The notes under the pieces were generated by a model, which did not search any database, was not told the origin of the DNA, and saw only the letters and a program-made list of their open reading frames with translations. From an uncultured SAR86 cluster bacterium (GTDB lineage: Bacteria > Pseudomonadota > Gammaproteobacteria > Magnimaribacterales > D2472): 64,000 nt of DNA. How positions within the stretch are numbered: the first letter of the stretch is position 1; every line of letters begins with the position of its first letter. This document shows positions 5,629 to 23,853 of the stretch, piece after piece. Both the position numbers and the translations under genes were made by a program. The stretch covers positions 260,276-324,275 of the forward strand of contig OX044367.1 in the NCBI GenBank assembly GCA_943846785.1, read 5' to 3'.

Positions 5629-5992
5629 GATTGACCGCTGCTAGCAACAGTAGGCCTGCAAATATTCCCATGTTTTTATAAAAGTTTTGGGTTTCATGTT
5701 TCGTATCTACGCCATCATATATGTTCCAAAAATCATGCAAGTTTAAGTTTATCAATAAGATCATTGCTGCAAACCCAATGGCGCAGACTACGACTTGCTT
5801 GTTAAGTAAAAGAAGGATGCTTCCACCCACTTGAGCAATGCCGGCAATGGCCAACAAAATAGGAATCATGACCATATTGTGGGTTTCCATTAATGCTATA
5901 TGCGTGTCCCATGAAGTAAATTTTGCTATGCCTGGTAGTAGAAAATAGATTGCGAGTAAAACTCTAGAAATATGAATTAATATAGATTTCAT
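5609..5992 (-). CDS. DoxX family membrane protein
   Basis: 127 aa with four hydrophobic helices. The N-terminal RVLLAIYFLLPGIAKF is typical of DoxX. Confidence 0.5.
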   Translation of the reverse strand: MKSILIHISRVLLAIYFLLPGIAKFTSWDTHIALMETHNMVMIPILLAIAGIAQVGGSILLLLNKQVVVCAIGFAAMILLINLNLHDFWNIYDGVDTKHETQNFYKNMGIFAGLLLLAAVNLDQDKT

Positions 5993-6019
5993 TATTACTC
6001 CCTTGCTAAATACTTAGCT

Positions 6020-6370
6020 TCATTTAAATTCATTCTTCCCATCGAAGTGCACTACCTTATAAATATCTGGTGGCTCATCTACACATCTGAGGTTAATACT
6101 ATAAGAGCCTGGATGAGATCGAGGCTGATAAAAACTTTTTGTTCCACATTTTTTGCAAAACAGATGCTTTGCTTTTTTAGTTCCAAAAGAATATTCAGAG
6201 ATTAAGTCTTTTCCATCTGTTATTTCAAAATCATCATGCTTGATAAAGAGATGTTCGTAACCATGTATTTTGCATATAGAGCAATTACATTCCCAAATTT
6301 CAACAGCCTGATCTGAGTTAAATTTAAATTTAACTTCCCCACAATGACATCTACCAACATACTCTTTCAT
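6020..6370 (-). CDS. GFA family protein (glutathione-dependent formaldehyde-activating enzyme / CENP-V fold)
   Basis: 116 aa. Zinc-cysteine pattern GRCHCGEVKF...CNCSICK...FCKKCG. Confidence 0.75.
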   Translation of the reverse strand: MKEYVGRCHCGEVKFKFNSDQAVEIWECNCSICKIHGYEHLFIKHDDFEITDGKDLISEYSFGTKKAKHLFCKKCGTKSFYQPRSHPGSYSINLRCVDEPPDIYKVVHFDGKNEFK

Positions 6371-6429
6371 AATTGAAGAATATCATGACTAAACTATAGT
6401 GCGATAGGAAATCCTAGCCAGTCTTTTGT

Positions 6430-8250
6430 CTACTCAAGAACAAAATCATAATATCCAAGATAAACATGAATGCTGCCATCATAGTTGTTGAATTCATTTC
6501 TCATTGTTTCTCCATAAACCACTATGTCTTCAATGCCGTCTCCATTTACATCTCTTGGAAATCCTTGTCCATGACCAGCATCCATAAGCAACTCATGCCC
6601 AGGCATTTCATATGATTGATTATTTTCATATTCAACCATTTGTCCTTCGGTATTATTTATGTTTATTATAGGAGTCCCTCCCCTTAGCCTTGGCGTTTCA
6701 TATCCATAGGATCTAGAAAATACGTTTCTTGAAAAATCTGTGTAGCCGTCATTGTTGAGATCTCTACAGTCTAGGAAATTCGCAAAAACTTGATTGTCAT
6801 AGATGTTAAATGGGCTTTCTATTTCAACTATTTTATTGTCTTGGATTTGAAAAACTTTAACCTCTTGGCTCGCATTAAAATTATTTTGATTGTATGTTTC
6901 TCCCTCTATTATTTCTCGACCTTCCTTATGAAAGCTTGTTGCAAATAAACCAAGAAAGGTCGTATTACCGGTATCATCAAATTTATCTTTAAAGAAACAC
7001 ATGGTCTCTGGAGTGTAGTCTATAGAGTACTTGCCATTTACTAAGTACACGGCAGTTGGCCCTTCTGATCCCTGCCAGGATATTTGATTTATAAAAAACT
7101 CTATCGATGTTAATTCTTGATCTACTTTGTTCCAGACATTATTTTCTCTAAACCACAAGGCTAGGCCTCTTTGGGAATAGTCCGTTGATTCATCTGTGGC
7201 AATAATATAGTTATCTTGGTATTTGAGCTCTGTGCTCCATGGAGCTGATCCTATATCAATAATATTAAGGCCGTCATCGCTCATTATGTTTTCTGTAGGA
7301 TATTCATCCTTAACGTCGAGCCATCCTTCTGGTGAATATCTATATGCTTGAAGTCCTATTCCAGTAAAGCCAGCAAATAGTGCATCCACATTTCCATTGT
7401 CATGCTCAACTATAGTTACTGCATGCCCCCAATCTGGGGTTCCAACTTTTACTATCTCATATTCTGTCTCGCCTTTAGATAATATAATTGCTGGGCTCGC
7501 TCTTGAGTATTCCCAAGGGTCTCCATTTCTTCCATCTTCCCAGTTCATAGCAAAAGCAAAATCGTCTCTTCCGTCTCCATTAAAATCACCTCTATCATAT
7601 TTTCTGCTTGCACCACCAAGGCTTGGGATATTTTCACCAAATACTTCTTGATTGCCCTCACGGTAGGTTCCATCACCATTAGAAAGATGCACAACGATTA
7701 AGTCTGGTGTTGGTTCTTGAATAACATCACCAAACTTATCTCTGTAAAGGTCACACCATTGATGCGCCATAAAGTCTTCCCAGCCATCATTATTAATATC
7801 TACAGGTATTACAAACTGAATAGATGGCTGAGCCTCTGAATAATCTGTATTACAAACCTGAGGGTAAAGATTTGAGTCGCTAATAATAATTGGCTCTTCT
7901 TTAAACTGGGATTTATATTCAGCTGTTACGGTGACGCTGCCCTCAGCAGAACCGCCATTTCCAGTGCATTTAATTTTAAATACTTGGCTGCCATCAACTG
8001 TAATGGTGAGAACCTCCTCACCGCTGATACCTTTAACTCCCTGCCAGCTTTCTGATGCCTCACATGCAGTCGAATTATTTGATGACCAAGAAATCGTAAC
8101 CTGCTCATCAACAAATAAGCTCATAGGGCTAGCTGAAATAGAAACTGTTGGTGCTGGAATAGGAGCTGGCTCAGGAGCGCTTCCGCCTCCTCCGCCACCA
8201 CAGGAAACAAGAATAAATATAGCTGGGATAACTGAATAAATTTTTAACAT
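6430..8250 (-). CDS. FG-GAP/VCBS-repeat surface lipoprotein
   Basis: 606 aa. Lipobox LVSC followed by GGGGGGSAPEPAPIPAP linker. Repeated Ca-binding DxNxDGxxD loops (DINNDGWEDF, DFNGDGRDDF, DLNNDGYTDF, DVNGDGIEDIV). Confidence 0.7.
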   Translation of the reverse strand: MLKIYSVIPAIFILVSCGGGGGGSAPEPAPIPAPTVSISASPMSLFVDEQVTISWSSNNSTACEASESWQGVKGISGEEVLTITVDGSQVFKIKCTGNGGSAEGSVTVTAEYKSQFKEEPIIISDSNLYPQVCNTDYSEAQPSIQFVIPVDINNDGWEDFMAHQWCDLYRDKFGDVIQEPTPDLIVVHLSNGDGTYREGNQEVFGENIPSLGGASRKYDRGDFNGDGRDDFAFAMNWEDGRNGDPWEYSRASPAIILSKGETEYEIVKVGTPDWGHAVTIVEHDNGNVDALFAGFTGIGLQAYRYSPEGWLDVKDEYPTENIMSDDGLNIIDIGSAPWSTELKYQDNYIIATDESTDYSQRGLALWFRENNVWNKVDQELTSIEFFINQISWQGSEGPTAVYLVNGKYSIDYTPETMCFFKDKFDDTGNTTFLGLFATSFHKEGREIIEGETYNQNNFNASQEVKVFQIQDNKIVEIESPFNIYDNQVFANFLDCRDLNNDGYTDFSRNVFSRSYGYETPRLRGGTPIININNTEGQMVEYENNQSYEMPGHELLMDAGHGQGFPRDVNGDGIEDIVVYGETMRNEFNNYDGSIHVYLGYYDFVLE

Positions 8251-8304
8251 TGTAAAAAAGTCTTGATGAATATATGTCTTAAATATTTATAATCTGCTAT
8301 TAAT

Positions 8305-9201
8305 TTATAATTTTATAAGCGCGTTGTGGGTAATCCTATCAGGGATATTTTCTGCTCCTGGCACCTTTCTGGCAATCAAGAATGGTTTAAGGACTTCAAT
8401 TGCTTTTGGTTCATCATAATGCCCAATGCCAGGATGAAGATGATGAATAAAATGAAGTTGCATTGAATGATTTAGATATCTTGGCATCCAGTGACTCCAA
8501 AACTTAGTGTCTTTATATCTACCAGTTTCCATCTGGTAGTGCGGATACCAACCAAAGAAAGCTGAAAGATAAATAACTCCAACCTTGCTTGGCAACCACC
8601 ATAACAGTAGCGCTTCAAGCGGAAAAACCACAGCAAGACTTAAAAGAATTGCTCTATATAGCAGCCCTATGTTCAGCCCTTTGTTAAAAGATTTCATAAA
8701 TGCTTTATCATTTTTATATATTTCAGCTAATGATTGATATTTAGTTATTCCTGCTTGAGTGGCTACAATAACGTCCCATATTGATTTAGAAGATGAGGTG
8801 TCATAGTCTGGATCTTTCTCAGGATTGTTGGTGTAAGCATGATGTTTCATATGCGTACATCTCATTAAATCATGAGGAAACATTAAGGTTACTAAAGTGT
8901 AGTGACTAACAAAAGAATCAATCCAACGCCTCTTTGGATTTCCTCTTGAAAAATTGCCGTGCTGAGCCTCATGTGAGGGTAAATAAGCAAAACACGCACA
9001 AACAATAGCAATTAGAGATCCATAAAATAAAGAAATATATCCATAAATAACTAATGGCCACAAAGAAAGCCATATAGTTGCCTGCCCAACGCCAATAAGC
9101 ATCATTTCCCATTGAAAGCGTTTAGAAAAACTTCTTGCTATCTCTTTCTCTTTTTCAAAAGAAAATTCTTCTGGGATTTGCTCTACGCCTTCCATAACCA
9201 A
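8305..9201 (-). CDS. membrane fatty-acid desaturase family protein
   Basis: 298 aa. Three histidine boxes HEAQHGN, HMKHHAYTN, HFIHHLHP. Substrate cannot be inferred. Confidence 0.7.
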   Translation of the reverse strand: MVMEGVEQIPEEFSFEKEKEIARSFSKRFQWEMMLIGVGQATIWLSLWPLVIYGYISLFYGSLIAIVCACFAYLPSHEAQHGNFSRGNPKRRWIDSFVSHYTLVTLMFPHDLMRCTHMKHHAYTNNPEKDPDYDTSSSKSIWDVIVATQAGITKYQSLAEIYKNDKAFMKSFNKGLNIGLLYRAILLSLAVVFPLEALLLWWLPSKVGVIYLSAFFGWYPHYQMETGRYKDTKFWSHWMPRYLNHSMQLHFIHHLHPGIGHYDEPKAIEVLKPFLIARKVPGAENIPDRITHNALIKL

Positions 9202-9383
9202 GTACCCCTAATTTTTGCTATAAGCCCTAAAGCCAAACCGCATAAATACCATATAAGTGAGCTGAGCATGACTTCGAATTGAATTGCAATTGCATTGAAA
9301 ACACTGCCCCAAAAAATTAACCCAAACCAAACCATATTCCAACTAGCTATATGGTTTGAAAGTAATTCATTCAATTTATTCAT
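9183..9383 (-). CDS. hypothetical small membrane protein
   Basis: 66 aa with two hydrophobic helices. Overlaps the desaturase start. Confidence 0.3.
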   Translation of the reverse strand: MNKLNELLSNHIASWNMVWFGLIFWGSVFNAIAIQFEVMLSSLIWYLCGLALGLIAKIRGTWLWKA

Positions 9384-9532
9384 AAAAATAGCGCCAATCT
9401 CATTTAAATATTATCTAATACTATATTAAGTTTGTACTATTTGTCACTCTTCAAATCTTCTCAGCCTTTGTGCGAAAACTATGGAAAGCATTAAGATGAG
9501 GGAGATTAATATTTCAAGGTATACTAAAAATT

Positions 9533-11050
9533 ATGCAAGAACGTCCAGACTATTCTAAGTTTATAGAACGCTTAAAAATGAGCGAAGATGAAACTAGGAT
9601 CGAATCAACTAAAAAACGTCATAGTAAAAAATATAGGACGGCGAGAGAAAATTTAAATCACTTGGTAGATGGGGATTCTTTTTTAGAGTTTGGTCAGTTT
9701 GCCGTGGCAGCACAACGAACACGAAGAGAAAAGGAAGATCTAATTCTCAACACAAATGCAGACGGAGTTATTACTGGGTTTTGCAAAATAAATTCTGATA
9801 TATCAAAAAAATTGAATGCTGATGCCGTGGCAATTGTTTATGATTATTCTGTTCTTGCTGGCACGCAAGGACTATTCCATCATCAAAAATTAGATCGCAT
9901 ATTTGAAAAGGCAAAGACATATAAATTACCAATTGTTATTTTTACTGAGGGTGGTGGAGGTAGGCCTGGGGATGTTGATGTTCTTACACAGATTGCAGGC
10001 ATGCATATCCCAAGCTTTGCTAGGTGGGCCTCGCTCCATAAAGAGTGTTTGAGAATAGCTATTACAAATGGATACTGCTTCGCTGGAAATGCTGCTCTTT
10101 TTGGAGCTAGTGATATAAGAATTGCAACTAAAGGGTCGAATATAGGAATGGCAGGACCCGCAATGATAGAGGGTGGTGGTCTTGGTAAATTCTCACCCGA
10201 TGATATTGGCGCTGTTGAGGATCATTTGTTAAATGGGGTCGTAGATGTTCTTGTTGAAAATGAAGAGCAGGCTACAAACATTGCAAAAAAAATACTTTCT
10301 TATTTCCAAGGCTCAATTGATAAGTTTGATGTCTCAGATCAGGAGCTTCTTAAAAATATTCTTCCTGATGACAGAAGGTTTAGTTATGAAATTAGAGACA
10401 TTATCGAGATAGTCGCTGATTTAGATTCATTTATAGAATTAAAAAAAGGTTATGGGAGAAGCTTAGTCACCGGACTTATTAGAGTTGAAGGGATTGCTTT
10501 TGGTTTATTAGCATCAGACTGTAAGTTCTTGGGTGGTGCTATTGATTCTGATTCTGCAGACAAAGCAGCAGAATTCTTTGAGCTCTGTAATGACCAAGGC
10601 TTGCCCATGGTTTCTATAGTGGATACTCCTGGTTTTATGGTTGGTCCTGATAGTGAAAAAGAAGGCGCTCCAAGAAGAATGGGCAAGTTATTTAAATCAA
10701 GCTCAACCTTTAAAAACAATCTTGTTTCTATTTTTCTTCGAAAAGGGTATGGCCTTGGGGCTCAAGCAATTGTTGGCGGCAGCTTACATAAGTCTACTTA
10801 TACGTGTGCTTGGCCATCGGGCGAGTTTGGAGGAATGGGTCTTGAGGGAGCGGTTAGGCTTGGTTACAAAAAAGAGCTTGAAGCCATATCGGACCCAAAA
10901 GAAAAAGAAATTCTTTATAACAAGCTAGTTGATAAAATGTATGAAGCAGGACAGGCGATGGAAGCTGCATCATTTTTAGAAATAGATGCTGTAATAAATC
11001 CCTCTAAAACACGAGAAACAATTATCAAAGCTCAGCATTCACTAAAATAA
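9533..11050 (+). CDS. acyl-CoA carboxylase carboxyltransferase subunit (fused N/C carboxyltransferase domains)
   Basis: 505 aa. Carboxyl-transferase blocks VAIVYDYSVLAGTQG, FTEGGGGRPGD, IVDTPGFMVGP, AWPSGEFGGMGLEGAV. Confidence 0.8.
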   Translation: MQERPDYSKFIERLKMSEDETRIESTKKRHSKKYRTARENLNHLVDGDSFLEFGQFAVAAQRTRREKEDLILNTNADGVITGFCKINSDISKKLNADAVAIVYDYSVLAGTQGLFHHQKLDRIFEKAKTYKLPIVIFTEGGGGRPGDVDVLTQIAGMHIPSFARWASLHKECLRIAITNGYCFAGNAALFGASDIRIATKGSNIGMAGPAMIEGGGLGKFSPDDIGAVEDHLLNGVVDVLVENEEQATNIAKKILSYFQGSIDKFDVSDQELLKNILPDDRRFSYEIRDIIEIVADLDSFIELKKGYGRSLVTGLIRVEGIAFGLLASDCKFLGGAIDSDSADKAAEFFELCNDQGLPMVSIVDTPGFMVGPDSEKEGAPRRMGKLFKSSSTFKNNLVSIFLRKGYGLGAQAIVGGSLHKSTYTCAWPSGEFGGMGLEGAVRLGYKKELEAISDPKEKEILYNKLVDKMYEAGQAMEAASFLEIDAVINPSKTRETIIKAQHSLK

Positions 11051-11302
11051 TGAATATAGTTAGTTAAGCTCTCCTTTTATTTTTTAATTGGGTTTCTCTC
11101 TATTTTTTGATCATATAAGAAAATTTTTTATTGTTTGAAATGAAGTTAATATCATTAAAAATGAACTTGCCAATAATTGTGCCAAATATGAGAAAACCAA
11201 GTCTATTCAGAATGTGGGATTAAAATGAAAGTCGTTATAAACTTACTCCGCTGTAACAGAGTTCTCGAAGTAAGGTTTGGGTTTTCCACTATTTGTGCAT
11301 GG

Positions 11303-12106
11303 CTAACGATCATTGGTTGCTCTGCTGATTCGACTAAGTCCTTTCTTGCGCCGATAGATAGCTATTTTTCTCGAAGCATCAATGGATTGCGAAATTCTCT
11401 GCCAAAAAGGTTTTTTCTCCGGATACCAACTGTTAGATTTATCCGGTAAAACGCCGTCCAGAACAACTTCCCAATCCGGCGATGATTCGTATCCACAACC
11501 GACGAGATCTGGTGTCATTGTGCCGTGGATTGCCTGCTGTTGAACGATGCGACCGAGATGTTTTCGCCAGACACCGACACTGGTCGTTCCAATGGGACGG
11601 ACGCCACGCATTGCAACCTTTGACTTTTCAGACACTTGCGCGTGTTCATGGTACTCAGAAAATTTGTGTTGTTTCTCAAGCCATGGAAATTTTGCAGTGA
11701 TTTGGTTTTGTGTGGCGTCAGGGTTATTTACGAAATCCTCGTACCGGATATTGAGAAAACGATCGTGGCCGAACAATGAGCGTGCACAGGCATGCAATTC
11801 ACGCCAAAGCCTAATGTTCGAGTAGTACATATCCTCGCTCTTACCGTGCCGGCTAACGATGACATCACGCGGATCGCGCGTTACGTAAATGACATAGAGA
11901 TTAGGATCGTCGATGACTCCTGGCATGTACAACGTATCTTTGGGTCGTTTCGTGATAACCACATCGTTGTTTTTTGCGGTTACGAGGTGAAAGCGAATCT
12001 CATGGTCATAATGCTTGTTTGTCCGAAAACAAGTGGCCATCGCCTCGTGCAAGAGAGTAGTACCGGATCGCGGCGAGCAGGCAACAATGTGAATGTGCTT
12101 AAACAG
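11303..12106 (-). CDS. PAPS-dependent sulfotransferase family protein (copy 1)
   Basis: Contains the 5'-PSB loop PRSGTT and the 3'-PB motif RDPRDVIVS. The ORF-track start (TTG 12052) lies downstream of PRSGTT. The frame is open back to 12109. CTG 12106..12104 sits 7 nt after AAGGAG (12119..12114) and would give MFKHIHIVACSPRSGTTLLHEAM. Confidence 0.7.
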   Translation of the reverse strand: MFKHIHIVACSPRSGTTLLHEAMATCFRTNKHYDHEIRFHLVTAKNNDVVITKRPKDTLYMPGVIDDPNLYVIYVTRDPRDVIVSRHGKSEDMYYSNIRLWRELHACARSLFGHDRFLNIRYEDFVNNPDATQNQITAKFPWLEKQHKFSEYHEHAQVSEKSKVAMRGVRPIGTTSVGVWRKHLGRIVQQQAIHGTMTPDLVGCGYESSPDWEVVLDGVLPDKSNSWYPEKKPFWQRISQSIDASRKIAIYRRKKGLSRISRATNDR

Positions 12107-12117
12107 ACGTCAACTCC

Positions 12118-12843
12118 TTAATTAGCCATTGCCGCTTCGTTATAGGCAGATATTAGTATTTGCCAATCGGCCAGTTGCCAATAAATATTATGTAATCGTT
12201 TTTCTTTCTCAAATGATCGCTTTAAACGCGCTATGTTTGAGTTTTTCCAATTACTGCCTTGTCTAATTTGGCATTTATCAAAATCAATTAACCAAACCTC
12301 GTTTTCTATATCGAGCATAATGTTGTGGATATTTAAATCGTGGAGATAAATCTGATGATGATGAAATTTGGCAATGGTTTGACCAATTTTTTTCCAAACA
12401 TCAGCGGTTAAGCTGTTTGCTAGTAAAATATGATGTAAGTCCCTAGCGCTGGAAATTTTTTTTAAAATGATATCGGCTTGGTAATATAAGCCAGTCTTCT
12501 TCAACATCGCTGCGATCGGGGTTGGACAATTTAAATCCATATTTTTCATTTGCTGTAGCAGCTTAAATTCTCGCCATGCTCGTGATTTTTCAATACCTGT
12601 GTACATATATTGATCACTTAGTACTTTTCCAATCAATCCGCCACGACGATAGTGCCGTAACACATATTCATTTTTGTTATGTTTAAAAAAGTAGGTGGTA
12701 CCACGGCCGGTTGCCTGTCCTGTTATGGCATTTTGTGTCTTCCAATATTGACCCGTAAACATTTTTGGGACAGGTACAGGGAAATGGCCTGAATCAAACA
12801 ACATGATGTGGGACTTAACTGATTTTTGTTTTATGTATGCCAT
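12118..12843 (-). CDS. kdkA: 3-deoxy-D-manno-octulosonic acid (Kdo) kinase (copy 1)
   Basis: 241 aa. Kdo/LPS kinase family blocks GRGTTYFF, YVLRHYRRGGLIGK, catalytic loop HDLNIHNIML, WLIDFDK. The ATG lies 4 nt after the upstream stop. Confidence 0.8.
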   Translation of the reverse strand: MAYIKQKSVKSHIMLFDSGHFPVPVPKMFTGQYWKTQNAITGQATGRGTTYFFKHNKNEYVLRHYRRGGLIGKVLSDQYMYTGIEKSRAWREFKLLQQMKNMDLNCPTPIAAMLKKTGLYYQADIILKKISSARDLHHILLANSLTADVWKKIGQTIAKFHHHQIYLHDLNIHNIMLDIENEVWLIDFDKCQIRQGSNWKNSNIARLKRSFEKEKRLHNIYWQLADWQILISAYNEAAMAN

Positions 12844-12847
12844 GTAA

Positions 12848-13771
12848 CTATTTTTGGCTTAAACGGATATTACTACGCACTTTAGACAATTGAGAATTTT
12901 CTTTATAACGTCCTTTTGTAACATGATGAATATGAAAAACACCATCAATATGCTTAGGCTCACCATCAGTGCCAAGTAGCCAGCGAAAGGCGGTGTCTTC
13001 ATAGGTTTTACGCCAACGGTCAGATTCAGTTTGAAATATTGACAGTTTTTCACAATAACCTATAGCACGAGCAACGTCACCATGAACAATTTGAAATGGG
13101 CCGCGTGCTTTATCACGGGATTTGCCACGCTCGTATAAACTGAAATTTTCTGTTTCTATATCGATAACTTGTGGTTGGGCATCATTTGACAATAATGGGT
13201 CATCATCTTCTAACATCTCAGTGATTTTTTCTTCTTTAGGAAAAAACAATGAACCTTTCTCGCCTTGTAAACTATCGGCGAGTGAGTCTAAGCAGTTCTC
13301 ATAAAAGATAATGTCGCAATCTGTAAACCATATCCAGTCAGCTTCTGTTGACCGCGCAGCCATATTTCGGCCTATACCACGTCTAAAGAGCTTTCCTTTG
13401 GTAAGAGGGTGGAAATTCCAAGTTATATTTGGCGTGGTTATTTGACTAAAGAAGTCCAATGTAGCCTTTGTTTTAGTATCTTCTTTAGCATAAAAAACGG
13501 TCACAGTTAAATTTAGTTTCGTTGGTGGATAGTTTACAAACGAACTTAATTGATAGGTTAACATGTTGGCATAACCCCAGCAGTGACTAACAATTTCTAA
13601 ATCAAACTTTCCCTTTACTGCCTTGCGATCTGCTTCAGCAGGTATTTTATCGCGAAACAATGACTGCGGTAAAATACGACCAAACACTAAACGATAAGCT
13701 TGTATAGCAAAGCTATTAAAGACATTTGGTGAAAATGTTTTTGTTTCTATCATGATAAATAAGTAAGCCAA
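12848..13771 (-). CDS. GT-A fold (family 2-like) glycosyltransferase (copy 1)
   Basis: 307 aa from TTG 13771, or 301 aa from ATG 13753. GT2 hallmark GRNMAARSTEADWIWFTDCDIIF with a DxD-like DCD. First strand is LEIVSHCW. Confidence 0.6.
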   Translation of the reverse strand: MAYLFIMIETKTFSPNVFNSFAIQAYRLVFGRILPQSLFRDKIPAEADRKAVKGKFDLEIVSHCWGYANMLTYQLSSFVNYPPTKLNLTVTVFYAKEDTKTKATLDFFSQITTPNITWNFHPLTKGKLFRRGIGRNMAARSTEADWIWFTDCDIIFYENCLDSLADSLQGEKGSLFFPKEEKITEMLEDDDPLLSNDAQPQVIDIETENFSLYERGKSRDKARGPFQIVHGDVARAIGYCEKLSIFQTESDRWRKTYEDTAFRWLLGTDGEPKHIDGVFHIHHVTKGRYKENSQLSKVRSNIRLSQK

Positions 13772-13920
13772 CTCATTTCTTAAAAAACTTTTTTATGCTT
13801 TCTAACAAAATTTACTCGACAGTACACGACTGAGTTCAACAGGGGGGGTTCTTTACCTTCGCTGTTAGGGTTACTACAAATCGACTTCATTTTCACTACC
13901 GTAATGATATCCCGTTTATA

Positions 13921-13946
13921 AAAAAAGAGGTATCCCCTCTTTTTAT
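13921..13946 (-). terminator. rho-independent terminator-like hairpin, potentially bidirectional
   Basis: AAAAGAGG-tatcc-CCTCTTTT with an A-tract on one side and a T-tract on the other. It lies 77 nt downstream of the unit-2 sulfotransferase stop. Confidence 0.5.
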
Positions 13947-13978
13947 TGAATACTTTTAATAATTATTAATTTATGAAG

Positions 13979-14017
13979 CAACCTCAGAATGCGGGATTAA
14001 AGCGAAAGTTGAGGTTG
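13979..14017. other. terminal inverted-repeat hairpin of the cassette (CAACCTCA-N23-TGAGGTTG)
   Basis: Perfect 8-bp arms at 13979..13986 and 14010..14017. The right arm ends exactly at the unit 1 / unit 2 junction. Confidence 0.6.
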
Positions 14018-14022
14018 CATGG

Positions 14023-14826
14023 CTAACGATCATTGGTTGCTCTGCTGATTCGACTAAGTCCTTTCTTGCGCCGATAGATAGCTATTTTTCTCGAAGCATC
14101 AATGGATTGCGAAATTCTCTGCCAAAAAGGTTTTTTCTCCGGATACCAACTGTTAGATTTATCCGGTAAAACGCCGTCCAGAACAACTTCCCAATCCGGC
14201 GATGATTCGTATCCACAACCGACGAGATCTGGTGTCATTGTGCCGTGGATTGCCTGCTGTTGAACGATGCGACCGAGATGTTTTCGCCAGACACCGACAC
14301 TGGTCGTTCCAATGGGACGGACGCCACGCATTGCAACCTTTGACTTTTCAGACACTTGCGCGTGTTCATGGTACTCAGAAAATTTGTGTTGTTTCTCAAG
14401 CCATGGAAATTTTGCAGTGATTTGGTTTTGTGTGGCGTCAGGGTTATTTACGAAATCCTCGTACCGGATATTGAGAAAACGATCGTGGCCGAACAATGAG
14501 CGTGCACAGGCATGCAATTCACGCCAAAGCCTAATGTTCGAGTAGTACATATCCTCGCTCTTACCGTGCCGGCTAACGATGACATCACGCGGATCGCGCG
14601 TTACGTAAATGACATAGAGATTAGGATCGTCGATGACTCCTGGCATGTACAACGTATCTTTGGGTCGTTTCGTGATAACCACATCGTTGTTTTTTGCGGT
14701 TACGAGGTGAAAGCGAATCTCATGGTCATAATGCTTGTTTGTCCGAAAACAAGTGGCCATCGCCTCGTGCAAGAGAGTAGTACCGGATCGCGGCGAGCAG
14801 GCAACAATGTGAATGTGCTTAAACAG
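14023..14826 (-). CDS. PAPS-dependent sulfotransferase family protein (copy 2)
   Basis: Identical to copy 1. CTG 14826..14824 follows AAGGAG 14839..14834. Confidence 0.7.
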   Translation of the reverse strand: MFKHIHIVACSPRSGTTLLHEAMATCFRTNKHYDHEIRFHLVTAKNNDVVITKRPKDTLYMPGVIDDPNLYVIYVTRDPRDVIVSRHGKSEDMYYSNIRLWRELHACARSLFGHDRFLNIRYEDFVNNPDATQNQITAKFPWLEKQHKFSEYHEHAQVSEKSKVAMRGVRPIGTTSVGVWRKHLGRIVQQQAIHGTMTPDLVGCGYESSPDWEVVLDGVLPDKSNSWYPEKKPFWQRISQSIDASRKIAIYRRKKGLSRISRATNDR

Positions 14827-14837
14827 ACGTCAACTCC

Positions 14838-15563
14838 TTAATTAGCCATTGCCGCTTCGTTATAGGCAGATATTAGTATTTGCCAATCGGCCAGTTGCCA
14901 ATAAATATTATGTAATCGTTTTTCTTTCTCAAATGATCGCTTTAAACGCGCTATGTTTGAGTTTTTCCAATTACTGCCTTGTCTAATTTGGCATTTATCA
15001 AAATCAATTAACCAAACCTCGTTTTCTATATCGAGCATAATGTTGTGGATATTTAAATCGTGGAGATAAATCTGATGATGATGAAATTTGGCAATGGTTT
15101 GACCAATTTTTTTCCAAACATCAGCGGTTAAGCTGTTTGCTAGTAAAATATGATGTAAGTCCCTAGCGCTGGAAATTTTTTTTAAAATGATATCGGCTTG
15201 GTAATATAAGCCAGTCTTCTTCAACATCGCTGCGATCGGGGTTGGACAATTTAAATCCATATTTTTCATTTGCTGTAGCAGCTTAAATTCTCGCCATGCT
15301 CGTGATTTTTCAATACCTGTGTACATATATTGATCACTTAGTACTTTTCCAATCAATCCGCCACGACGATAGTGCCGTAACACATATTCATTTTTGTTAT
15401 GTTTAAAAAAGTAGGTGGTACCACGGCCGGTTGCCTGTCCTGTTATGGCATTTTGTGTCTTCCAATATTGACCCGTAAACATTTTTGGGACAGGTACAGG
15501 GAAATGGCCTGAATCAAACAACATGATGTGGGACTTAACTGATTTTTGTTTTATGTATGCCAT
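14838..15563 (-). CDS. kdkA: Kdo kinase (copy 2)
   Basis: Protein identical to 12118..12843. Confidence 0.8.
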   Translation of the reverse strand: MAYIKQKSVKSHIMLFDSGHFPVPVPKMFTGQYWKTQNAITGQATGRGTTYFFKHNKNEYVLRHYRRGGLIGKVLSDQYMYTGIEKSRAWREFKLLQQMKNMDLNCPTPIAAMLKKTGLYYQADIILKKISSARDLHHILLANSLTADVWKKIGQTIAKFHHHQIYLHDLNIHNIMLDIENEVWLIDFDKCQIRQGSNWKNSNIARLKRSFEKEKRLHNIYWQLADWQILISAYNEAAMAN

Positions 15564-15567
15564 GTAA

Positions 15568-16491
15568 CTATTTTTGGCTTAAACGGATATTACTACGCAC
15601 TTTAGACAATTGAGAATTTTCTTTATAACGTCCTTTTGTAACATGATGAATATGAAAAACACCATCAATATGCTTAGGCTCACCATCAGTGCCAAGTAGC
15701 CAGCGAAAGGCGGTGTCTTCATAGGTTTTACGCCAACGGTCAGATTCAGTTTGAAATATTGACAGTTTTTCACAATAACCTATAGCACGAGCAACGTCAC
15801 CATGAACAATTTGAAATGGGCCGCGTGCTTTATCACGGGATTTGCCACGCTCGTATAAACTGAAATTTTCTGTTTCTATATCGATAACTTGTGGTTGGGC
15901 ATCATTTGACAATAATGGGTCATCATCTTCTAACATCTCAGTGATTTTTTCTTCTTTAGGAAAAAACAATGAACCTTTCTCGCCTTGTAAACTATCGGCG
16001 AGTGAGTCTAAGCAGTTCTCATAAAAGATAATGTCGCAATCTGTAAACCATATCCAGTCAGCTTCTGTTGACCGCGCAGCCATATTTCGGCCTATACCAC
16101 GTCTAAAGAGCTTTCCTTTGGTAAGAGGGTGGAAATTCCAAGTTATATTTGGCGTGGTTATTTGACTAAAGAAGTCCAATGTAGCCTTTGTTTTAGTATC
16201 TTCTTTAGCATAAAAAACGGTCACAGTTAAATTTAGTTTCGTTGGTGGATAGTTTACAAACGAACTTAATTGATAGGTTAACATGTTGGCATAACCCCAG
16301 CAGTGACTAACAATTTCTAAATCAAACTTTCCCTTTACTGCCTTGCGATCTGCTTCAGCAGGTATTTTATCGCGAAACAATGACTGCGGTAAAATACGAC
16401 CAAACACTAAACGATAAGCTTGTATAGCAAAGCTATTAAAGACATTTGGTGAAAATGTTTTTGTTTCTATCATGATAAATAAGTAAGCCAA
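15568..16491 (-). CDS. GT-A fold (family 2-like) glycosyltransferase (copy 2)
   Basis: Protein identical to 12848..13771. Confidence 0.6.
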   Translation of the reverse strand: MAYLFIMIETKTFSPNVFNSFAIQAYRLVFGRILPQSLFRDKIPAEADRKAVKGKFDLEIVSHCWGYANMLTYQLSSFVNYPPTKLNLTVTVFYAKEDTKTKATLDFFSQITTPNITWNFHPLTKGKLFRRGIGRNMAARSTEADWIWFTDCDIIFYENCLDSLADSLQGEKGSLFFPKEEKITEMLEDDDPLLSNDAQPQVIDIETENFSLYERGKSRDKARGPFQIVHGDVARAIGYCEKLSIFQTESDRWRKTYEDTAFRWLLGTDGEPKHIDGVFHIHHVTKGRYKENSQLSKVRSNIRLSQK

Positions 16492-16640
16492 CTCATTTCT
16501 TAAAAAACTTTTTTATGCTTTCTAACAAAATTTACTCGACAGTACACGACTGAGTTCAACAGGGGGGGTTCTTTACCTTCGCTGTTAGGGTTACTACAAA
16601 TCGACTTCATTTTCACTACCGTAATGATATCTCGTTTATA

Positions 16641-16666
16641 AAAAAAGAGGTATCCCCTCTTTTTAT
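16641..16666 (-). terminator. rho-independent terminator-like hairpin (copy 2)
   Basis: Same sequence as 13921..13946. Here it lies downstream of the host MAPEG gene. Confidence 0.5.
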
Positions 16667-16698
16667 TGAATACTTTTAATAATTATTAATTTATGAAG

Positions 16699-16737
16699 CA
16701 ACCTCAGAATGCGGGATTAAAGCGAAAGTTGAGGTTG
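16699..16737. other. terminal inverted-repeat hairpin of the cassette (copy 2, forms the right end of the insert)
   Basis: CAACCTCA-N23-TGAGGTTG. Identity with the host-free repeat stops at 16737. Confidence 0.6.
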
Positions 16738-16842
16738 ACTTATTCCACTGTGACTGACTGGTTTTGAACAGAGAATTAGATTTCTTTCCCTGAAACCCTT
16801 TATGGAAACTCTGATAAAACTTTATATATTTTTCTTCCATAC

Positions 16843-17241
16843 TTATAAAAGTAGCATAATCGACGTCCTGATGAGACCCAAGAAACCAACAAAAGTTAGT
16901 GCCATACCACCAATTCTTAAAAACATATTTGGTTTCAAAAAAGAAAAAACTATTCCGTGCATCAATCTCCCGACCGTAAATGCTATTCCAGAGAAATAAA
17001 GTTGAGTTTGAGGTGCCCCTGATAATTCAAGAATAAACATTAAAATTAAGAATAGTGGAGCATATTCGACTAGATTTCCGTGCCCTCTGATGGACCTTTG
17101 AAGAGTTTTGTCATCAACAATCCTATTGGGTTTGTGAAGAAATTTTGTGACGGGACTTCCTCTGAGGTCGAGAACTCTAAAAGATAGAATTATCATAAAT
17201 GATGAAAGTATCGTGGCAAATATTAGAGTAATTTCTGGCAT
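16843..17241 (-). CDS. MAPEG family membrane protein (microsomal glutathione S-transferase-like)
   Basis: 132 aa with four helices. MAPEG motif RSIRGHGNLVEYAPLFL. Confidence 0.65.
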   Translation of the reverse strand: MPEITLIFATILSSFMIILSFRVLDLRGSPVTKFLHKPNRIVDDKTLQRSIRGHGNLVEYAPLFLILMFILELSGAPQTQLYFSGIAFTVGRLMHGIVFSFLKPNMFLRIGGMALTFVGFLGLIRTSIMLLL

Positions 17242-17304
17242 GTTTATAAATTTATAATTCTCTGTTTTGTTCTACTCCACCGTAACAGAGTATCCATAAC
17301 CAAA

Positions 17305-18462
17305 TTATTGTTGTTTGTAATTTTGGTCATGAAGATCCATTATATTTTCAGCGATTGTATGTAAGTCAGTATTAAAACCTGTGTCGGCGTCATTGGTTCT
17401 TAAGTTAACCCCATATAACCCATTCAACCATATTAGCGCTCCTGTGTTAACAACAATTTTACCTTGATGTCCCTTTGTATCTCTAAATATTGAATCATCA
17501 TAGGAACCAAATAAGGAAATATCATCAAGCAATAAATTATTTTCATACTGATCAACCAAATCAAATGTTGCCCACCCGGTTGGAAGAGTAAATATTTCTG
17601 TTGAAGGGTATATTTCGCGCAACTGATCAATGACAGCCTTATGCGAGAGATCGCTAACCAAATACCCATATAAATCTCTTATATTGTTATACCCATAATC
17701 TTCTGCTACTTGCTGCCAGTCTGCTGGAAAATCTATGGGTGGAATGTGTACAAATATTTTTATGTTGGGGTTATTTTGCAAAGCATAATCTATCCATTCT
17801 GTAAAACCTGATAAAGGGTTATTTTCATTTAAATACCAAGTCATCCCAAGAATGTCGATGTTCCCAGAATCTAGAATTTGTTTAATTTCTGTGTTTGTGT
17901 CTTCTTTTGTCCATAATCCAATTGGTGTGCCGTAAACGCCGCCTCTCATAACGATAGTATCTCTGTGTTCTAAAAAGTCTGCATCTAGTGCTAACTCGCT
18001 GAATCTTTCAGCGTAAGGTCTAAAGAAACTATTACCCATGAGTAACATATTTGATCCACCCATGCCCTCAAGAACATCGTTAATGGAAATTATTATTCCA
18101 AGCGATGAGGATAATGAACCATCTGATGCAATTATGGTTACTTCATAAATATTATCTTGATTACTGTCTTGTGGATTTTCATAGTCTGGTGGCGAAATAA
18201 AAGATAGTTCTCCAGACAAGCTCCCTATTGTCATTAATGCTGAGTCAGAACCTTCAATGGAATAGGTTATATTGTCCCCCTCGGCATCTGTTGCTTGAAT
18301 AGTAGTTACCTGAGTGGTGTTTTCATCAATTGCAAAATCAATTAAACCTACAAGTTGAGGTGCTGTATTTACTTGTTCGGGTGTCTCACTATTGCTTCCC
18401 CCGCCGCCACATCCTACAAGAGCGGTTACTAGAATAATTAGATATCTATAGTTTTGTTCCAT
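17305..18462 (-). CDS. lipoprotein with an N-terminal cadherin-like domain and a C-terminal uncharacterised (possibly SGNH-like) domain
   Basis: 385 aa. Lipobox LVGC followed by GGGGSNSE. Cadherin-like segment IDENTTQVTTIQATDAEGDNITYSIEG...YEVTIIASDG. Confidence 0.6.
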   Translation of the reverse strand: MEQNYRYLIILVTALVGCGGGGSNSETPEQVNTAPQLVGLIDFAIDENTTQVTTIQATDAEGDNITYSIEGSDSALMTIGSLSGELSFISPPDYENPQDSNQDNIYEVTIIASDGSLSSSLGIIISINDVLEGMGGSNMLLMGNSFFRPYAERFSELALDADFLEHRDTIVMRGGVYGTPIGLWTKEDTNTEIKQILDSGNIDILGMTWYLNENNPLSGFTEWIDYALQNNPNIKIFVHIPPIDFPADWQQVAEDYGYNNIRDLYGYLVSDLSHKAVIDQLREIYPSTEIFTLPTGWATFDLVDQYENNLLLDDISLFGSYDDSIFRDTKGHQGKIVVNTGALIWLNGLYGVNLRTNDADTGFNTDLHTIAENIMDLHDQNYKQQ

Positions 18463-18559
18463 ATGTATTTTTATAAGTAAGTTACGTATTAAATATAGAT
18501 TGAGAATTGCTTTCCAATAGTCAGTATTGGTAACTTTATTAAGATATCACATGATTTTC

Positions 18560-18614
18560 ATATTTTTATGAGGGTAAGTTGGAAAAGATTCTTTTTCAGA
18601 TTGGTCTTGATCAA
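18560..18614. repeat. 55-bp direct repeat, copy A
   Basis: atatttttatgagggtaagttggaaaagattctttttcagattgGtcttgatcaa. Matches 18755..18809 at 54 of 55 positions. Confidence 0.85.
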
Positions 18615-18754
18615 TTGCATATTGTGTTATCTTATCGTTTGCTTCAGGAATACCTGAAGTCATTGTCAATCTCATTCTTCTTTGCTGAGAATAACCTGAC
18701 TCACTTACATGAATCGTCTCATTGATTGGTGTTTTTATTATGTATAAGATTTAT

Positions 18755-18809
18755 ATATTTTTATGAGGGTAAGTTGGAAAAGATTCTTTTTCAGATTGAT
18801 CTTGATCAA
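18755..18809. repeat. 55-bp direct repeat, copy B (begins 15 nt beyond the glmS stop codon)
   Basis: Same sequence as copy A, with A at 18799 instead of G at 18604. Period is 195 nt. Confidence 0.85.
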
Positions 18810-18824
18810 CCGAGAAACCTTTCC

Positions 18825-20652
18825 TTATTCCACCGTAACTGACTTTGCTAGATTCCTTGGTTGATCAATATCTGTTCCTCTTAGTAAGGCGACTTCATAT
18901 GAAAGAATCTGTAGAGGAATGTTATATACAATAGGAGTTAAGAAGAAATCACATTTTGGCATATGAACAAGCTCACCAGCCTTAACATCCATTTTTACCG
19001 ATGGATCAGCAAAAACATATAGCGTGCCACCTCTTGCTTTTACTTCCTCAAGATTAGAAATTAATTTTTCAGCTATTTCGCTTTCAGGTGCCAATGCAAT
19101 AACTGGCATATTCTCATCAATAAGAGCCAGTGGTCCATGCTTTAACTCGCCTGCTGGGTATGCCTCTGCATGAATATAAGAAATCTCTTTTAAGTTTTAA
19201 GGCGCCCTCTTTTGCAATTGGATAAAAAATTCCTCTGCCTAAGAAAAGAGCATTGTCCTTGTTTGCAATACTTGGCGCTATTGCTGCGATTTGTTCTTTT
19301 TGCAGCAGTGATTCTGAAATTGTTTCTGGTAATAATCTTAGTGCATTAACAATTCTGCCTCTTAATTTGGGATTTAAGTCTTTGCTTTTGGCTAAAGAAA
19401 GAGCAAGCAACATAAGAGCAGCTAGCTGAGTGGTGAACGCTTTGGTTGAGGCAACTCCAATTTCTGGGCCAGCATTAGTAAAAAGCACAAAGTCAGACTC
19501 TCTTGCTAGTGAACTTGTTGGAACATTACAAATAGCTAGAGAAGCCAAATAATTCTTTTCTTTTGCGTAGCTCAGCGCTGCCAATGTGTCTGCAGTCTCT
19601 CCAGATTGAGAAATGGTTATGATTAATGAATCATCATCTACATGAGGGTTTCTATATCTGTATTCACTAGCGTAATCTATTTGACATGGGAGTTCAGCTA
19701 TAGATGAAAACCAATTTGCTGCTACTCTTCCAGCATGAAGGCTAGTTCCACAAGCAACAATTTGTATTCGTTTAACTTTTGCAAAAATATCGCTAGAACC
19801 TAATCCAAAAATATTATCTAAGACATCTTCTCCACCTATTCTTCCATCGATAGTATTGGATACTGCTTCAGGTTGTTCATAGATTTCTTTTTCCATAAAG
19901 TGTCTATAGTCACCTTTTGAGGTTGCTTGGTTTGAAATATCTATATGGGTTACTTCTCTGGTAACTTCTTTTTTAGAGCTATCAAAAATTTTATAAGAGT
20001 TCGCTGATATTTCTGCAACATCTCCATCTTCTAGAAAGATAAAATCGTTTGTCATTTGTGCTATAGCTAAAGGGTCAGAGGCGGCAAATATTTCATCCGT
20101 GCCAAGGCCAATTAACAAAGGCGACTTGTTTCTTGCTACAACTAAATTAGTATTATCTTTAATGTCTATAGCAGCTATTGCATAAGCTCCTTCAAGTTTT
20201 TCTTTTGCTAAATACATTGCATCGAGCATGCTGTTACCTTCATTCATATGCAGATCAAGTAAATGCGCTATAAGCTCTGAGTCGGTTTGGGATGAAAACT
20301 CATAGCCGTCGCTCATTAGGGATTCTCGCAAGTCCACATAGTTTTCAATAATGCCGTTATGAACGATATATACAGAGTCTTTTGATTTATGTGGGTGGGC
20401 ATTTATCTCTGAAGGCTCTCCATGAGTTGCCCATCTTGTATGCGCAATGCCGAGCTTACTCTTTGGCTTTTCAGCAATCATTTTATCTTCGAGAAGCTGA
20501 ACTTTACCTAATGCACGCAAGTGAGCAATTGATTCATTTTGATGCAAGGCGATTCCTGCTGAGTCATAGCCTCTATATTCCATTTTATGGAGCCCTTGAA
20601 CTAGTAATTTACCAACGTTTCTTGTTGATGCTGCAGCAATGATTCCGCACAT
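18825..20652 (-). pseudogene. glmS: glutamine--fructose-6-phosphate aminotransferase, frame broken by one extra base
   Basis: ORFs 19117..20652 (MCGIIAAAST...) and 18825..19109 (...[11 protein letters not shown]) are two frames of one GlmS. Removing one T from the run 19188..19191 restores ...[40 protein letters not shown]. Confidence 0.85.
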
Positions 20653-20654
20653 AT

Positions 20655-22011: not shown

Positions 22012-22037
22012 AGTAATTTAAATATTAAATATCTACC

Positions 22038-22451: not shown

Positions 22452-22453
22452 AG

Positions 22454-23853
<1,400 letters not shown>

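Follow-up and report, generated by a model that had tools for sequence, protein, structure and literature searches.

A nearly perfect 2,720-bp tandem duplication of a three-gene operon that encodes a sulfotransferase, the Kdo kinase KdkA and a family-2-like glycosyltransferase lies in the genome of an uncultured bacterium of the SAR86 cluster (GenBank assembly GCA_943846785.1, contig OX044367.1, forward-strand positions 260,276 to 324,275; this stretch of 64,000 nucleotides (nt) is hereafter the window, and all coordinates refer to it unless another locus is named). Comparison with the loci and contigs of relatives, designated by L numbers, points to a two-step origin that we consider somewhat better than an even proposition: the operon would be part of an array of cassettes inserted site-specifically at the 3' end of glmS, and a segment containing the operon would have been duplicated secondarily through microhomology. 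The three genes constitute a cell-surface (lipopolysaccharide, LPS) modification operon.

The island that harbors the duplication (11243-18842) is located directly downstream of glmS (18825-20652, split by a 1-nt insertion at 19188), which is itself preceded by glmU and the atp operon, and is bordered at its other end by a convergent carboxyltransferase gene. A short motif next to the unit reads ACTTAYTCCRCTGTRAC in plus-strand orientation; its reverse complement matches the last glmS codons (SVTVE-stop), and the 18-nt core, TCN GTN ACN GTN GAR TAR (SVTVE*), is a copy of the glmS C-terminus. The window contains four perfect cores (18842-18825, 17289-17272, 16757-16740 and 11260-11243) and two degenerate ones (16549-16532 and 13829-13812, one in each copy of the repeat), all on the glmS strand, that is, the minus strand. 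The proximal attachment (att) core is the true glmS 3' end, TCAGTTACGGTGGAATAA (18825-18842); it is followed by core r3, TCTGTTACGGTGGAGTAG (17272-17289), between the cassettes for a cadherin-repeat protein and a MAPEG protein, by core r2, TCAGTCACAGTGGAATAA (16740-16757), by the degenerate core r2b, TCGTGTACTGTCGAGTAA (16532-16549, with a copy at 13812-13829), and, at the distal end of the array, by core r1, TCTGTTACAGCGGAGTAA (11243-11260), with a T-to-C change at position 11. Thus, direct repeats that restore the 3' end of the target gene bound the units at 18825, 17272, 16740, 16532 (degenerate) and 11243. Exact matches of proteins, together with a scan of one genome per species, assign the window to the SAR86 clade: in the scan, the best relatives of this glmS came from SAR86 metagenome-assembled and single-amplified genomes (76-87% amino-acid identity), and every SAR86 locus with enough downstream DNA contains 2-8 same-strand cores that differ mainly at wobble positions. 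More than one core was found in none of the 60 non-SAR86 glmS loci of the same scan, which have the genuine glmS end only, and the chance expectation, calculated from the degeneracy of the pattern, is about 0.003 matches per locus. The site that the preliminary description of this DNA took for a neutral gap between two convergent genes is, hence, the distal part of a glmS-anchored integration array.

The distal flank of the array (11195-11242, minus strand) resembles the DNA natively found after glmS and includes a decayed terminator; judging from L020, L011 and L092, where glmS directly precedes a sequence that ends in CCTCGCATTCTGCGGGG and a T-run, this flank is probably native-like glmS-downstream DNA. 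A 26-nt element within it (11207-11232) recurs at 13984-14009 and 16704-16729; a MAFFT alignment of the three boundary regions missed this shared element, which local alignment revealed. Some units, after cores in L011, L020, L092, L096 and L100, also begin with a conserved, glmS-terminator-like sequence ending in CCTCGCATTCTGCGGGG and a T-run, and such units may be former pieces of the chromosomal flank and not cassettes that bear their own arms.

Two independent features locate the exchange within the core. First, at natural joints, the bases at core positions 1-6 go with the unit upstream and those at positions 9-18 with the unit downstream; for example, the right half of r2, together with the sequence after it (AGTGGAATAA gtcaacctc...), has at least five left partners, namely, MAPEG in the window and the 3' ends in L106/L107, L108, L109 and L110, all joined exactly at AC. 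The 3' end of the sulfotransferase gene is fused to MAPEG in L092 and L100, exactly at A7/C8 (CCAATG-AC-GGTGGAGTAG). Second, many units carry terminal inverted repeats, with a 5' arm 0-5 nt after the core and a 3' arm that ends 4-9 nt before the next core. The arm sequences vary by unit (for example, GAACAGAGAAT, TTTCGTTTGCAGAAT, TCAACAGGGGGG and GTTTAGTCGGTCTTTC) but their dyad axis falls between core positions 7 and 8 (A|C): the mirror-complementarity in this register is 49% (59 units), against 25-34% in the twelve other registers and 36.4±1.6% in the same register when the two arms come from different units. Joints and dyad axis agree in placing the apparent strand exchange at the invariant AC of the threonine codon (core positions 7-8), a fixed central dinucleotide flanked by imperfect inverted half-sites, with an allelic difference needed to accommodate one joint (see below). 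The arms span 11-27 bp on either side of AC, and the core together with the two arms amounts to about 56 bp around a non-palindromic dinucleotide. The attP sites of serine integrases have this layout, about 56 bp around a non-palindromic central dinucleotide, and the core with its arms can be tentatively viewed as an attP-sized site. Two other interpretations of the same sequences were abandoned. Comparisons of the window with L001 and L002, and those involving L005, had suggested a crossover at or after core position 12, which additional joints and the dyad axis moved to AC; and palindromes between neighboring cassettes are seen only in pairs with a common arm class, the symmetry being that of each cassette's own two ends.

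A candidate enzyme is encoded in the arrays of relatives, where the last gene of each of four core-bounded elements, at 26-50 nt from the distal core, encodes a large serine recombinase. The four are the 6-kb element of L023, which also encodes a G2P-like rolling-circle replication protein (Rep; REP_ORF2-G2P); the element of L091, L095 and L098, located two units upstream of an operon with KdkA identical to that of the window; the 7.7-kb element of L101, directly after glmS, whose arms (TTTTGAACAGAGAATAAGA and TCTTATTCTCTGTTCAAAA) belong to the arm class of the MAPEG unit; and the 11.5-kb element of L102, after a GC-rich glmS. The recombinases contain Resolvase and Recombinase domains followed by a C-terminal region that matches the A118 integrase (E 5e-8) and belong to a family of more than 130 marine proteins. 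No close relatives of the L101 recombinase were found in IMG/VR, and the genes of the L101 and L023 elements showed no phage structural matches in PHROGs. In four loci, a small resolvase-type serine recombinase (136-203 amino acids (aa)) is encoded immediately upstream of the large one (L101, 9408-10004, where it overlaps the start of the large gene; L102, 9198-9788; L103, 1404-1814; L105, 2281-2892); this small protein could be a partner, an invertase or a directionality factor.

Taken together, these comparisons suggest that the serine recombinases catalyze exchange at the cores and that the recombinase-less units are moved in trans. In this scheme, elements would integrate site-specifically into the last six codons of glmS, with the exchange at the AC of the threonine codon driven by the large serine recombinase that, in the elements of some relatives, adjoins the distal arm. 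Each insert would bring its own 18-bp core and push older elements distally; because each element carries its own copy of the core, glmS stays intact. Cassettes that lack a recombinase (those of cadherin, MAPEG and the glycosyltransferase-KdkA-sulfotransferase operon) would be moved, lost and reshuffled in trans. The preliminary description had concluded that the operon would have to be mobilized in trans, and candidates for a recombinase acting in trans indeed exist in sibling elements (L023, L091, L101 and L102).

Several other routes to such an array have features in their favor. The region downstream of glmS is the classical target of Tn7; the mostly co-oriented, single-gene cassettes with palindromic junction sites resemble those of integrons; and the arms covary like structured attC sites. 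Nevertheless, we regard Tn7-like transposition at attTn7, an integron-type tyrosine recombinase and homologous recombination between conserved flanks as very improbable, even when taken together. The joints are found at the AC of an ACN codon, within the glmS reading frame, rather than about 25 bp downstream with a 5-bp duplication as in Tn7 insertions. The junctions carry the glmS 18-mer and lack the RYYYAAC/GTTRRRY boxes of integrons; a GTTAGCC sequence at the sulfotransferase end deviates from the consensus by one base and lacks a partner box. As for homologous recombination, the 18-bp cores are too short and too diverged at wobble positions for RecA, yet the exchange is precise. Genes for Tns proteins, IntI or a tyrosine recombinase were detected neither in the window nor among the few island ORFs of relatives that were scanned with Pfam (a selection from 113 ORF families), and the flanking genes of the array are glmS and the carboxyltransferase gene; the only recombinases beside cores are of the serine type, in four independent elements. 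Readings of the sites themselves as those of integrons, Tn7, Xer/dif or IS200/IS605 were set aside on sequence grounds.

The composition of the array changes even among close relatives. Among the strains with a carboxyltransferase protein identical to that of the window, the operon is present once in L001, L002, L004 and L007, with or without MAPEG; is replaced by a DUF3784 cassette in L006, L008 and L009; and is absent in L005, where the carboxyltransferase gene is followed by a 429-nt unit and then by glmS. Thus, the gap next to the carboxyltransferase gene, for which a comparison among relatives had been suggested, is nearly empty in L005 and elsewhere holds other cassettes or a single operon. 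On contigs with identical KdkA, the operon is found before MAPEG, after MAPEG or directly after the cadherin gene. Other units behave similarly: L092 and L094 differ precisely by a 1.4-kb two-gene unit without a recombinase, which the former has and the latter lacks; L106 lacks exactly the 532-nt MAPEG unit; and the MAPEG cassette occurs at other positions and in other species (L013, L019, L091 and L092).

The operon itself has spread recently. The 2.7-kb block differs at 0-3 positions across all these contexts, whereas the cadherin unit differs by 3-4% in the same contigs; a 2.66-kb block is 99.9% identical in the L092 lineage, the glmS 3' end of which is about 75% identical to that of the window; and, overall, the operon retains 99.9% identity between lineages and between array positions whose divergence is otherwise 4-25%. 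Exact copies of the KdkA protein are present on 89 contigs and those of the glycosyltransferase on 36 contigs. Given this near-identity across contexts, compared with the divergence of the cadherin unit and the glmS end, the whole operon, not only its GC-rich gene, is recently transferred DNA. Mobile DNA at a variable site, without a recombinase of its own, is what the preliminary description had proposed, and this part of it holds by virtue of the presence-absence pattern among strains and the 99.9% identical block in the divergent L092 rather than by composition. As an aside, KdkA (241 aa) and the glycosyltransferase (307 aa) fall in one 7,620-member cluster of a protein collection built at 90% identity, presumably because the two genes, which are 4 nt apart, have been called as a single fused gene.

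The compositional argument had to be narrowed. When compared with 54 other genes of the window, the sulfotransferase gene is clearly atypical, with a G+C content of 0.47, a G+C content at third codon positions of 0.49 (z 5.6), a synonymous-codon log-likelihood z of -6.8 and a tetranucleotide distance z of about 6.7. In contrast, kdkA (G+C 0.365, z 0.4) and the glycosyltransferase gene (0.376, z 0.7) are host-like, with mildly unusual codon use (z about -2 for both). The atypical stretch is confined to the sulfotransferase module, 11296-12120 (z 3.6 to 6.8); the rest of the repeat unit has a G+C content of 0.367, compared with 0.357 for the window. The four hand counts on which the foreign origin of the unit had been based, 34, 30, 19 and 16 G+C per 60 nt, are all exact, but when computed over the whole unit, the deviation in G+C, codon use and oligonucleotides does not extend beyond this module. 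The proposed coincidence between the boundaries of the repeat and those of foreign DNA, accordingly, stands on the left, where there is a compositional step at 11296, and fails on the right, where there is none, since only the sulfotransferase module deviates.

Dissection of the duplicated segment shows it to be a mosaic, composed of a cassette remnant, a degenerate core, the glycosyltransferase-kdkA pair and a GC-rich sulfotransferase module from elsewhere. On the glmS strand, the order is core r2, a 208-nt remnant, r2b, glycosyltransferase-kdkA, the sulfotransferase module, a 35-nt tail and core r1. All three genes are on the minus strand: the glycosyltransferase gene (12848-13771, second copy 15568-16491), with a weak Pfam match to Glycos_transf_2 and assigned to the GT2 family in the sources; kdkA (12118-12843, second copy 14838-15563), with a Pfam match to Kdo/WaaP (E 1e-48); and the sulfotransferase gene (11303-12052, second copy 14023-14772), with matches to Sulfotransfer_3 and Sulfotransfer_1 and an N-terminal PRSGTT P-loop motif. 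The true 5' boundary of this cassette is the degenerate core r2b: a canonical core followed by the same sequence is present in L091 at 6015, and the same degenerate core is found in L106 and L092. The DNA between r2b and r2, which had been described as the leader of the operon, is a remnant of another cassette (16550-16739, minus strand; copy at 13830-14015, without the first bases), 95% identical to L101 14186-14351. It retains a hairpin (16699-16737), a terminator-like hairpin (around 16642-16664) and the 3' arm of the TetR/desaturase cassette of L101; the hairpin folds have dG values of -7.7 (z -2.8) and -7.4 (z -5.4).

At the other end of the segment, the sulfotransferase module (12120-11296) has a counterpart with 98% amino-acid identity in L020, from another SAR86 species, and the homology stops exactly at 11296; the closest relatives of the sulfotransferase outside SAR86, at 65-70% identity, are in Woeseiaceae and other Gammaproteobacteria. 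In L020, the module forms a separate unit together with a second, 232-aa sulfotransferase-like gene, which is also retained in L003(b), L101 and L106, there behind the operon, and is deleted in the window. A 13-nt motif, CGTTAGCCATGCA (11296-11308, minus strand, and again at 14016-14028), comprises the end of the sulfotransferase gene and the start codon of the 232-aa gene, and in L003(b) it flanks the 232-aa gene as a direct repeat. Deletion between these 13-nt repeats accounts for both the loss of the 232-aa gene in the lineage of the window and the nucleotide-exact boundary at 11296. The 35-nt tail of the operon cassette (11261-11295, minus strand), which is not duplicated, is shared from about position 11291 with the DUF3784 cassette of L006, L008 and L009. 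A possible decayed att core at 11281-11298 ('r0') was rejected because in L003(b), L020 and L106 this tail follows the 232-aa gene deleted from the window.

The duplication consists of two head-to-tail copies, 11296-14015 and 14016-16735, with a period of 2,720 bp and a single mismatch: self-comparison at this offset shows identity throughout 11296-14017, the sole exception being C at 13912 versus T at 16632. The TG at 16736-16737 repeats the first two bases of the unit, which results in a 2-nt overlap. The extent of the unit from 7 nt past the sulfotransferase stop (11303) to 244 nt upstream of the glycosyltransferase start (13771), as well as the ends of the carboxyltransferase (11050) and MAPEG (16843) genes, had been determined correctly from the start. 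The new junction between the copies (14015/14016) reads GAGGT[TG]CATGGC, contains no 18-mer core, and has the sequence GAGGTTGCATGGC; on the gene strand, it is …CCATG[CA]ACCTC… (in a longer form, …CGTTAGCCATG[CA]ACCTCAAC…), with 2 nt shared only. The right end of the duplication lies 2-4 nt past the stop codon of core r2 and 13-14 nt from its AC, at the foot of the hairpin 16699-16737 (dG -7.7 kcal/mol, z -2.8), and the left breakpoint coincides with the end of the 13-nt motif CGTTAGCCATGCA. Thus, the locus displays adjacent direct copies with one new junction and minimal homology at the breakpoints, whereas a single copy of the operon is present in L001, L002, L004, L007, L091-L100 and L106. 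The distance from core r2 to core r1 in the single-copy strains is 2,777 nt (AC to AC).

These features distinguish the duplication from the movements of cassettes. Reinsertion by the island mechanism would be expected to place a core at the joint and to yield a period of 2,777 bp; the actual period of 2,720 bp, the coreless joint and the 2-nt overlap argue that the duplication was not made by the cassette machinery. Most likely, it is a recent and unstable gene amplification mediated by microhomology. Tandem duplications of this type are common and unstable and often start at hairpins. We envisage a secondary event inside the mosaic, by template switching or illegitimate recombination at the foot of the hairpin, with template switching as the putative origin.

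A different origin, namely, a 2,720-bp circle inserted twice or as a concatemer through site-specific or rolling-circle recombination in trans, was put forward in the preliminary description. The mobility of the recombinase-less operon, the presence of a rolling-circle Rep (REP_ORF2-G2P) and serine recombinases in sibling elements, the different population alleles in the two copies, as if one came from another strain, and the nucleotide-exact left boundary at the end of the shared sulfotransferase module are all compatible with such a circle. We nevertheless find it improbable. The junction lacks an att core and its flanks share TG only, whereas the core-bounded unit of 2,777 bp would leave an 18-mer between the copies; furthermore, the 2,720-bp unit truncates the remnant cassette and does not include the core and the 35-nt tail that belong to the operon cassette. 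The coincidence at the left boundary is explained more simply by the 13-nt repeat that deleted the 232-aa gene. The junction, whether between copies or in a circle, was not found in IMG/VR or in JGI metagenomes, a search of low power given that only 4 JGI contigs contain the end of the repeat unit, and the duplication is present in none of about 15 other ENA contigs that carry the operon. There is also no Rep in the unit or the window, the G2P-like Rep being restricted to the L023 element.

Alternatively, the island serine recombinase could have produced the duplication by unequal exchange between sister chromosomes at two pseudo-sites that share CA, in which case the event would be a side effect of cassette exchange and not of replication. 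Serine recombinases cut with a 2-bp stagger, which fits the 2-nt overlap; the right breakpoint falls within the right half-site of core r2; and the fusion seen in L092 and L100 records a pseudo-site event at the sulfotransferase 3' end 13 nt away. However, the breakpoints, ATAAGT-CA-ACCTCAACTT and GCCATG-CA-CAAATAGTGG, do not resemble TCNGTN-AC-NGTNGARTAR, the dinucleotide is CA instead of AC, and no recombinase gene was found in the window, so that we assign this scenario a low probability as well.

Several observations sit uneasily with the combination of a recombinase-built array and a microhomology-mediated duplication that we favor. Both breakpoints of the duplication are at formerly used recombination points, which is unlikely for a random slip: one is at most 4 nt from a cassette start, and the other coincides exactly with the limit of homology to the four-gene haplotype, at a distance of 13 nt from the L092 fusion. 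The copies differ only at 13912/16632, a polymorphic position in the population (3 contigs with C and 3 with T), the allele of copy 1 being that of L003a, L106 and L096, and the allele of copy 2 that of L001, L002 and L004, which is not predicted by duplication in situ. At the glmS-cadherin joint, core positions 9 and 12 are not the same in the window and L106 as in L001 and L002, so an allelic difference must be assumed. The 64-kb window itself encodes no detectable recombinase: tblastn with three large serine recombinases gave no match, and Pfam searches of the less obvious ORFs yielded housekeeping families only, the remaining ORFs having been identified only by inspection of the translated sequences (dnaA, dnaN, gyrB, atp, cox and similar); the earlier statement that the unit and the window lack an integrase, transposase, Rep or relaxase agrees with this absence of a recombinase or Rep. 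The evidence for recombinase action on the cores is comparative throughout. Cassette-specific complementarity of the arms is not known to be required by serine integrases that read sequence, and it leaves room for a structure-dependent or different enzyme. Finally, the assembly is prone to errors, with frameshifts in glmS, glmU, atpD and atpA. Within 18825-29000, glmS has an extra T at 19188 relative to L002, glmU is split (20655-21227/21097-22011), and atpD and atpA extend over several frames; these frameshifts are most likely indel errors of a long-read assembly rather than signs of pseudogenes.

The last of these points bears on whether the duplication is real. In a noisy long-read metagenome with a highly polymorphic locus, the repeat could be an artefact or a consensus of mixed strains, such that the second copy or the junction would be absent from single cells or present in a minority of them. 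In addition to the frameshifts in essential genes, there are homopolymer errors in sister assemblies, for example, at the glmS end of L002; in L003, two haplotypes that exist separately as L106 and L001 are joined in one contig; the two copies carry both population alleles; and the duplication was seen in no other contig compared. Conversely, assemblers do not as a rule create clean junctions in the interior of a contig, which in this case is probably about 1.3 Mb long judging from cluster data, so that the joint must exist in reads, and the unit itself is free of errors, its KdkA and glycosyltransferase being identical to the proteins on the 89 and 36 contigs mentioned above. On balance, we consider an artefact unlikely, although it is the main alternative. 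L003 is ambiguous in its own right: positions 1-5391 represent a haplotype without the carboxyltransferase (the operon with the 232-aa gene, then 66-aa and desaturase genes, as in L106) joined to the standard haplotype at 5392-14396, the contig being either a genuine large duplication or a chimera assembled from two strains.

The cadherin-repeat protein cassette (17290-18824, gene 17305-18462) and the MAPEG cassette (16758-17271, gene 16843-17241) are on the minus strand, and the latter has perfect 12-bp terminal inverted repeats, AACAGAGAATTA (17255-17266) and TAATTCTCTGTT (16767-16778). A 62-nt direct repeat (18553-18614 and 18748-18809; 95% identical, 195 nt apart) is located in the 5' region of the cadherin cassette, in the stretch between glmS and the cadherin gene that is most divergent from L002 (95% identity, versus 99.5% elsewhere). 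The convergent carboxyltransferase gene (9533-11050, plus strand) is absent in the L106 haplotype, and in L016, it is found in the glmS orientation about 6 kb downstream of glmS, with 75% identity; this gene, too, may thus be a variable component of the island and not a fixed border. Searches of the region for tRNA, tmRNA and Rfam families found nothing, and scans for promoter and terminator consensus sequences gave no more matches than expected in shuffled sequence. The window also includes the origin gene set (dnaA, dnaN, recF, gyrB, mnmG, mnmE, yidC, parA and parB; 36666-42094 and neighbors), which puts the glmS array within about 20-30 kb of the presumed origin.

Three observations concern the arrays of relatives. 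Cassettes near glmS (L092-L099, around 3130-5660; L016, 13622-14599) carry HNH endonuclease, T5orf172 and HNH-HIT genes, which resemble defence or selfish-nuclease genes carried as cargo. Two units, that of L016 and one with three genes in L017, are oriented opposite to glmS. L011 contains a longer second copy of the glmS end (12056-12094, about 39 nt), 267 nt after the real end, so that some remnants exceed the 18-bp core.

The array combines traits of several known systems. The closest in logic are the staphylococcal cassette chromosome (SCC) elements, including SCCmec and pseudo-SCC, at rlmH (orfX), in which large serine recombinases act on the last codons of a housekeeping gene, the element restores the 3' end of the gene including the stop codon, core direct repeats and terminal inverted repeats are present, and elements accumulate in tandem, with many units lacking a recombinase and dependent on one in trans. 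The SAR86 array differs in its target, glmS (SVTVE*), and in its host, a streamlined marine gammaproteobacterium; its units are mostly 0.2-2.8 kb long, with one to three genes, up to eight cores and arm complementarity specific to each cassette; and its candidate recombinases, for which the only solved relative found is the A118 integrase, may not be of the Ccr type. The cis-mobilizable elements (CIMEs) and the integrative and conjugative elements ICESt1/ICESt3 at the 3' end of fda in Streptococcus thermophilus are similar in that att-flanked non-autonomous units lie in tandem with an autonomous element and are mobilized through the recombinase of the neighbor, but they rely on a tyrosine integrase and conjugation modules, whereas the candidate SAR86 recombinases are of the serine type and no conjugation genes were recognized in the loci examined.

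Integrons and clusters of attC sites lacking integron integrases (CALINs) share with the SAR86 array mostly co-oriented, often single-gene cassettes without a recombinase, imperfect palindromes that vary in sequence but keep their symmetry, and shuffled order. Beyond the lack of a detected IntI and of the integron boxes, and the crossover at AC in an 18-bp glmS copy, the SAR86 palindrome is split between the two ends of a cassette, whereas that of integrons stays at the 3' end. Tn7 likewise uses the conserved sequence coding for the glmS C-terminus as a safe-harbor address, and, as is reported for recognition by TnsD, only codon positions 1 and 2 appear to matter; unlike Tn7, the SAR86 cassettes insert within the coding sequence, with no 5-bp duplication, no Tn7-type ends and no TnsABCD genes in the window. 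As described in the report on tycheposons (bioRxiv 10.1101/2020.12.28.424599), these elements of Prochlorococcus islands encode integrases and target tRNA genes. Tycheposons resemble the SAR86 array in having a marine streamlined host, in the successive integrations at one site that push older elements inward, in the scattered partial copies of the target gene and in ecologically relevant cargo (bioRxiv 10.1101/2020.12.28.424599). The SAR86 array differs in that its target is the end of a protein-coding gene, its candidate recombinases are of the serine type and its cassettes are mostly minimal. The integrases of tycheposons are tyrosine recombinases. Our literature searches turned up no description of glmS arrays in SAR86, of this island or of serine recombinases that target glmS, which is no proof of novelty.

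The duplication itself looks ordinary. It has the head-to-tail, nearly identical copies, the single joint with 2-nt microhomology, the single copy in relatives and the breakpoint at a hairpin foot that are typical of tandem amplification, although its breakpoints at earlier recombination points of the island and the difference between the copies at a polymorphic site are not typical. For genome scanning, this is a caution: the perfect repeat is probably the least informative feature of the locus and may be a product of assembly. The broader interpretation, to which we give an even chance of being correct as a whole, is that SAR86 possesses a gene-capture platform that would implement integron-like logic with large serine recombinases, with insertion, excision, reordering and cross-species exchange of cassettes at a single AC in the last six codons of glmS. 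The same interpretation includes dozens of mostly recombinase-less cassettes that carry genes for surface structures, defence and niche adaptation, the private palindromic arms of these cassettes, and a duplicated LPS operon caught in the course of recent spread and amplification. The candidate enzymes for the platform are P0061 (L091, 3027-4760), P0063 (L101, 10001-11707) and the proteins of L023 (16176-17831) and L102. Serine integrases specific for the universally conserved, wobble-tolerant end of glmS could serve genome engineering as a recombinase analogue of Tn7.

SAR86 is among the most abundant bacterial lineages of the surface ocean and, like other streamlined marine bacteria that are poor in phages and plasmids, exchanges flexible genes that determine susceptibility to phages and grazers. 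A glmS-anchored array served by a recombinase in trans, if real, would provide a concrete mechanism for this exchange, with an 18-bp core, a crossover at AC and arms of about 17 bp, and the 99.9% identity of the LPS operon across lineages that differ by about 25% in glmS would then reflect gene-specific spread through this platform.

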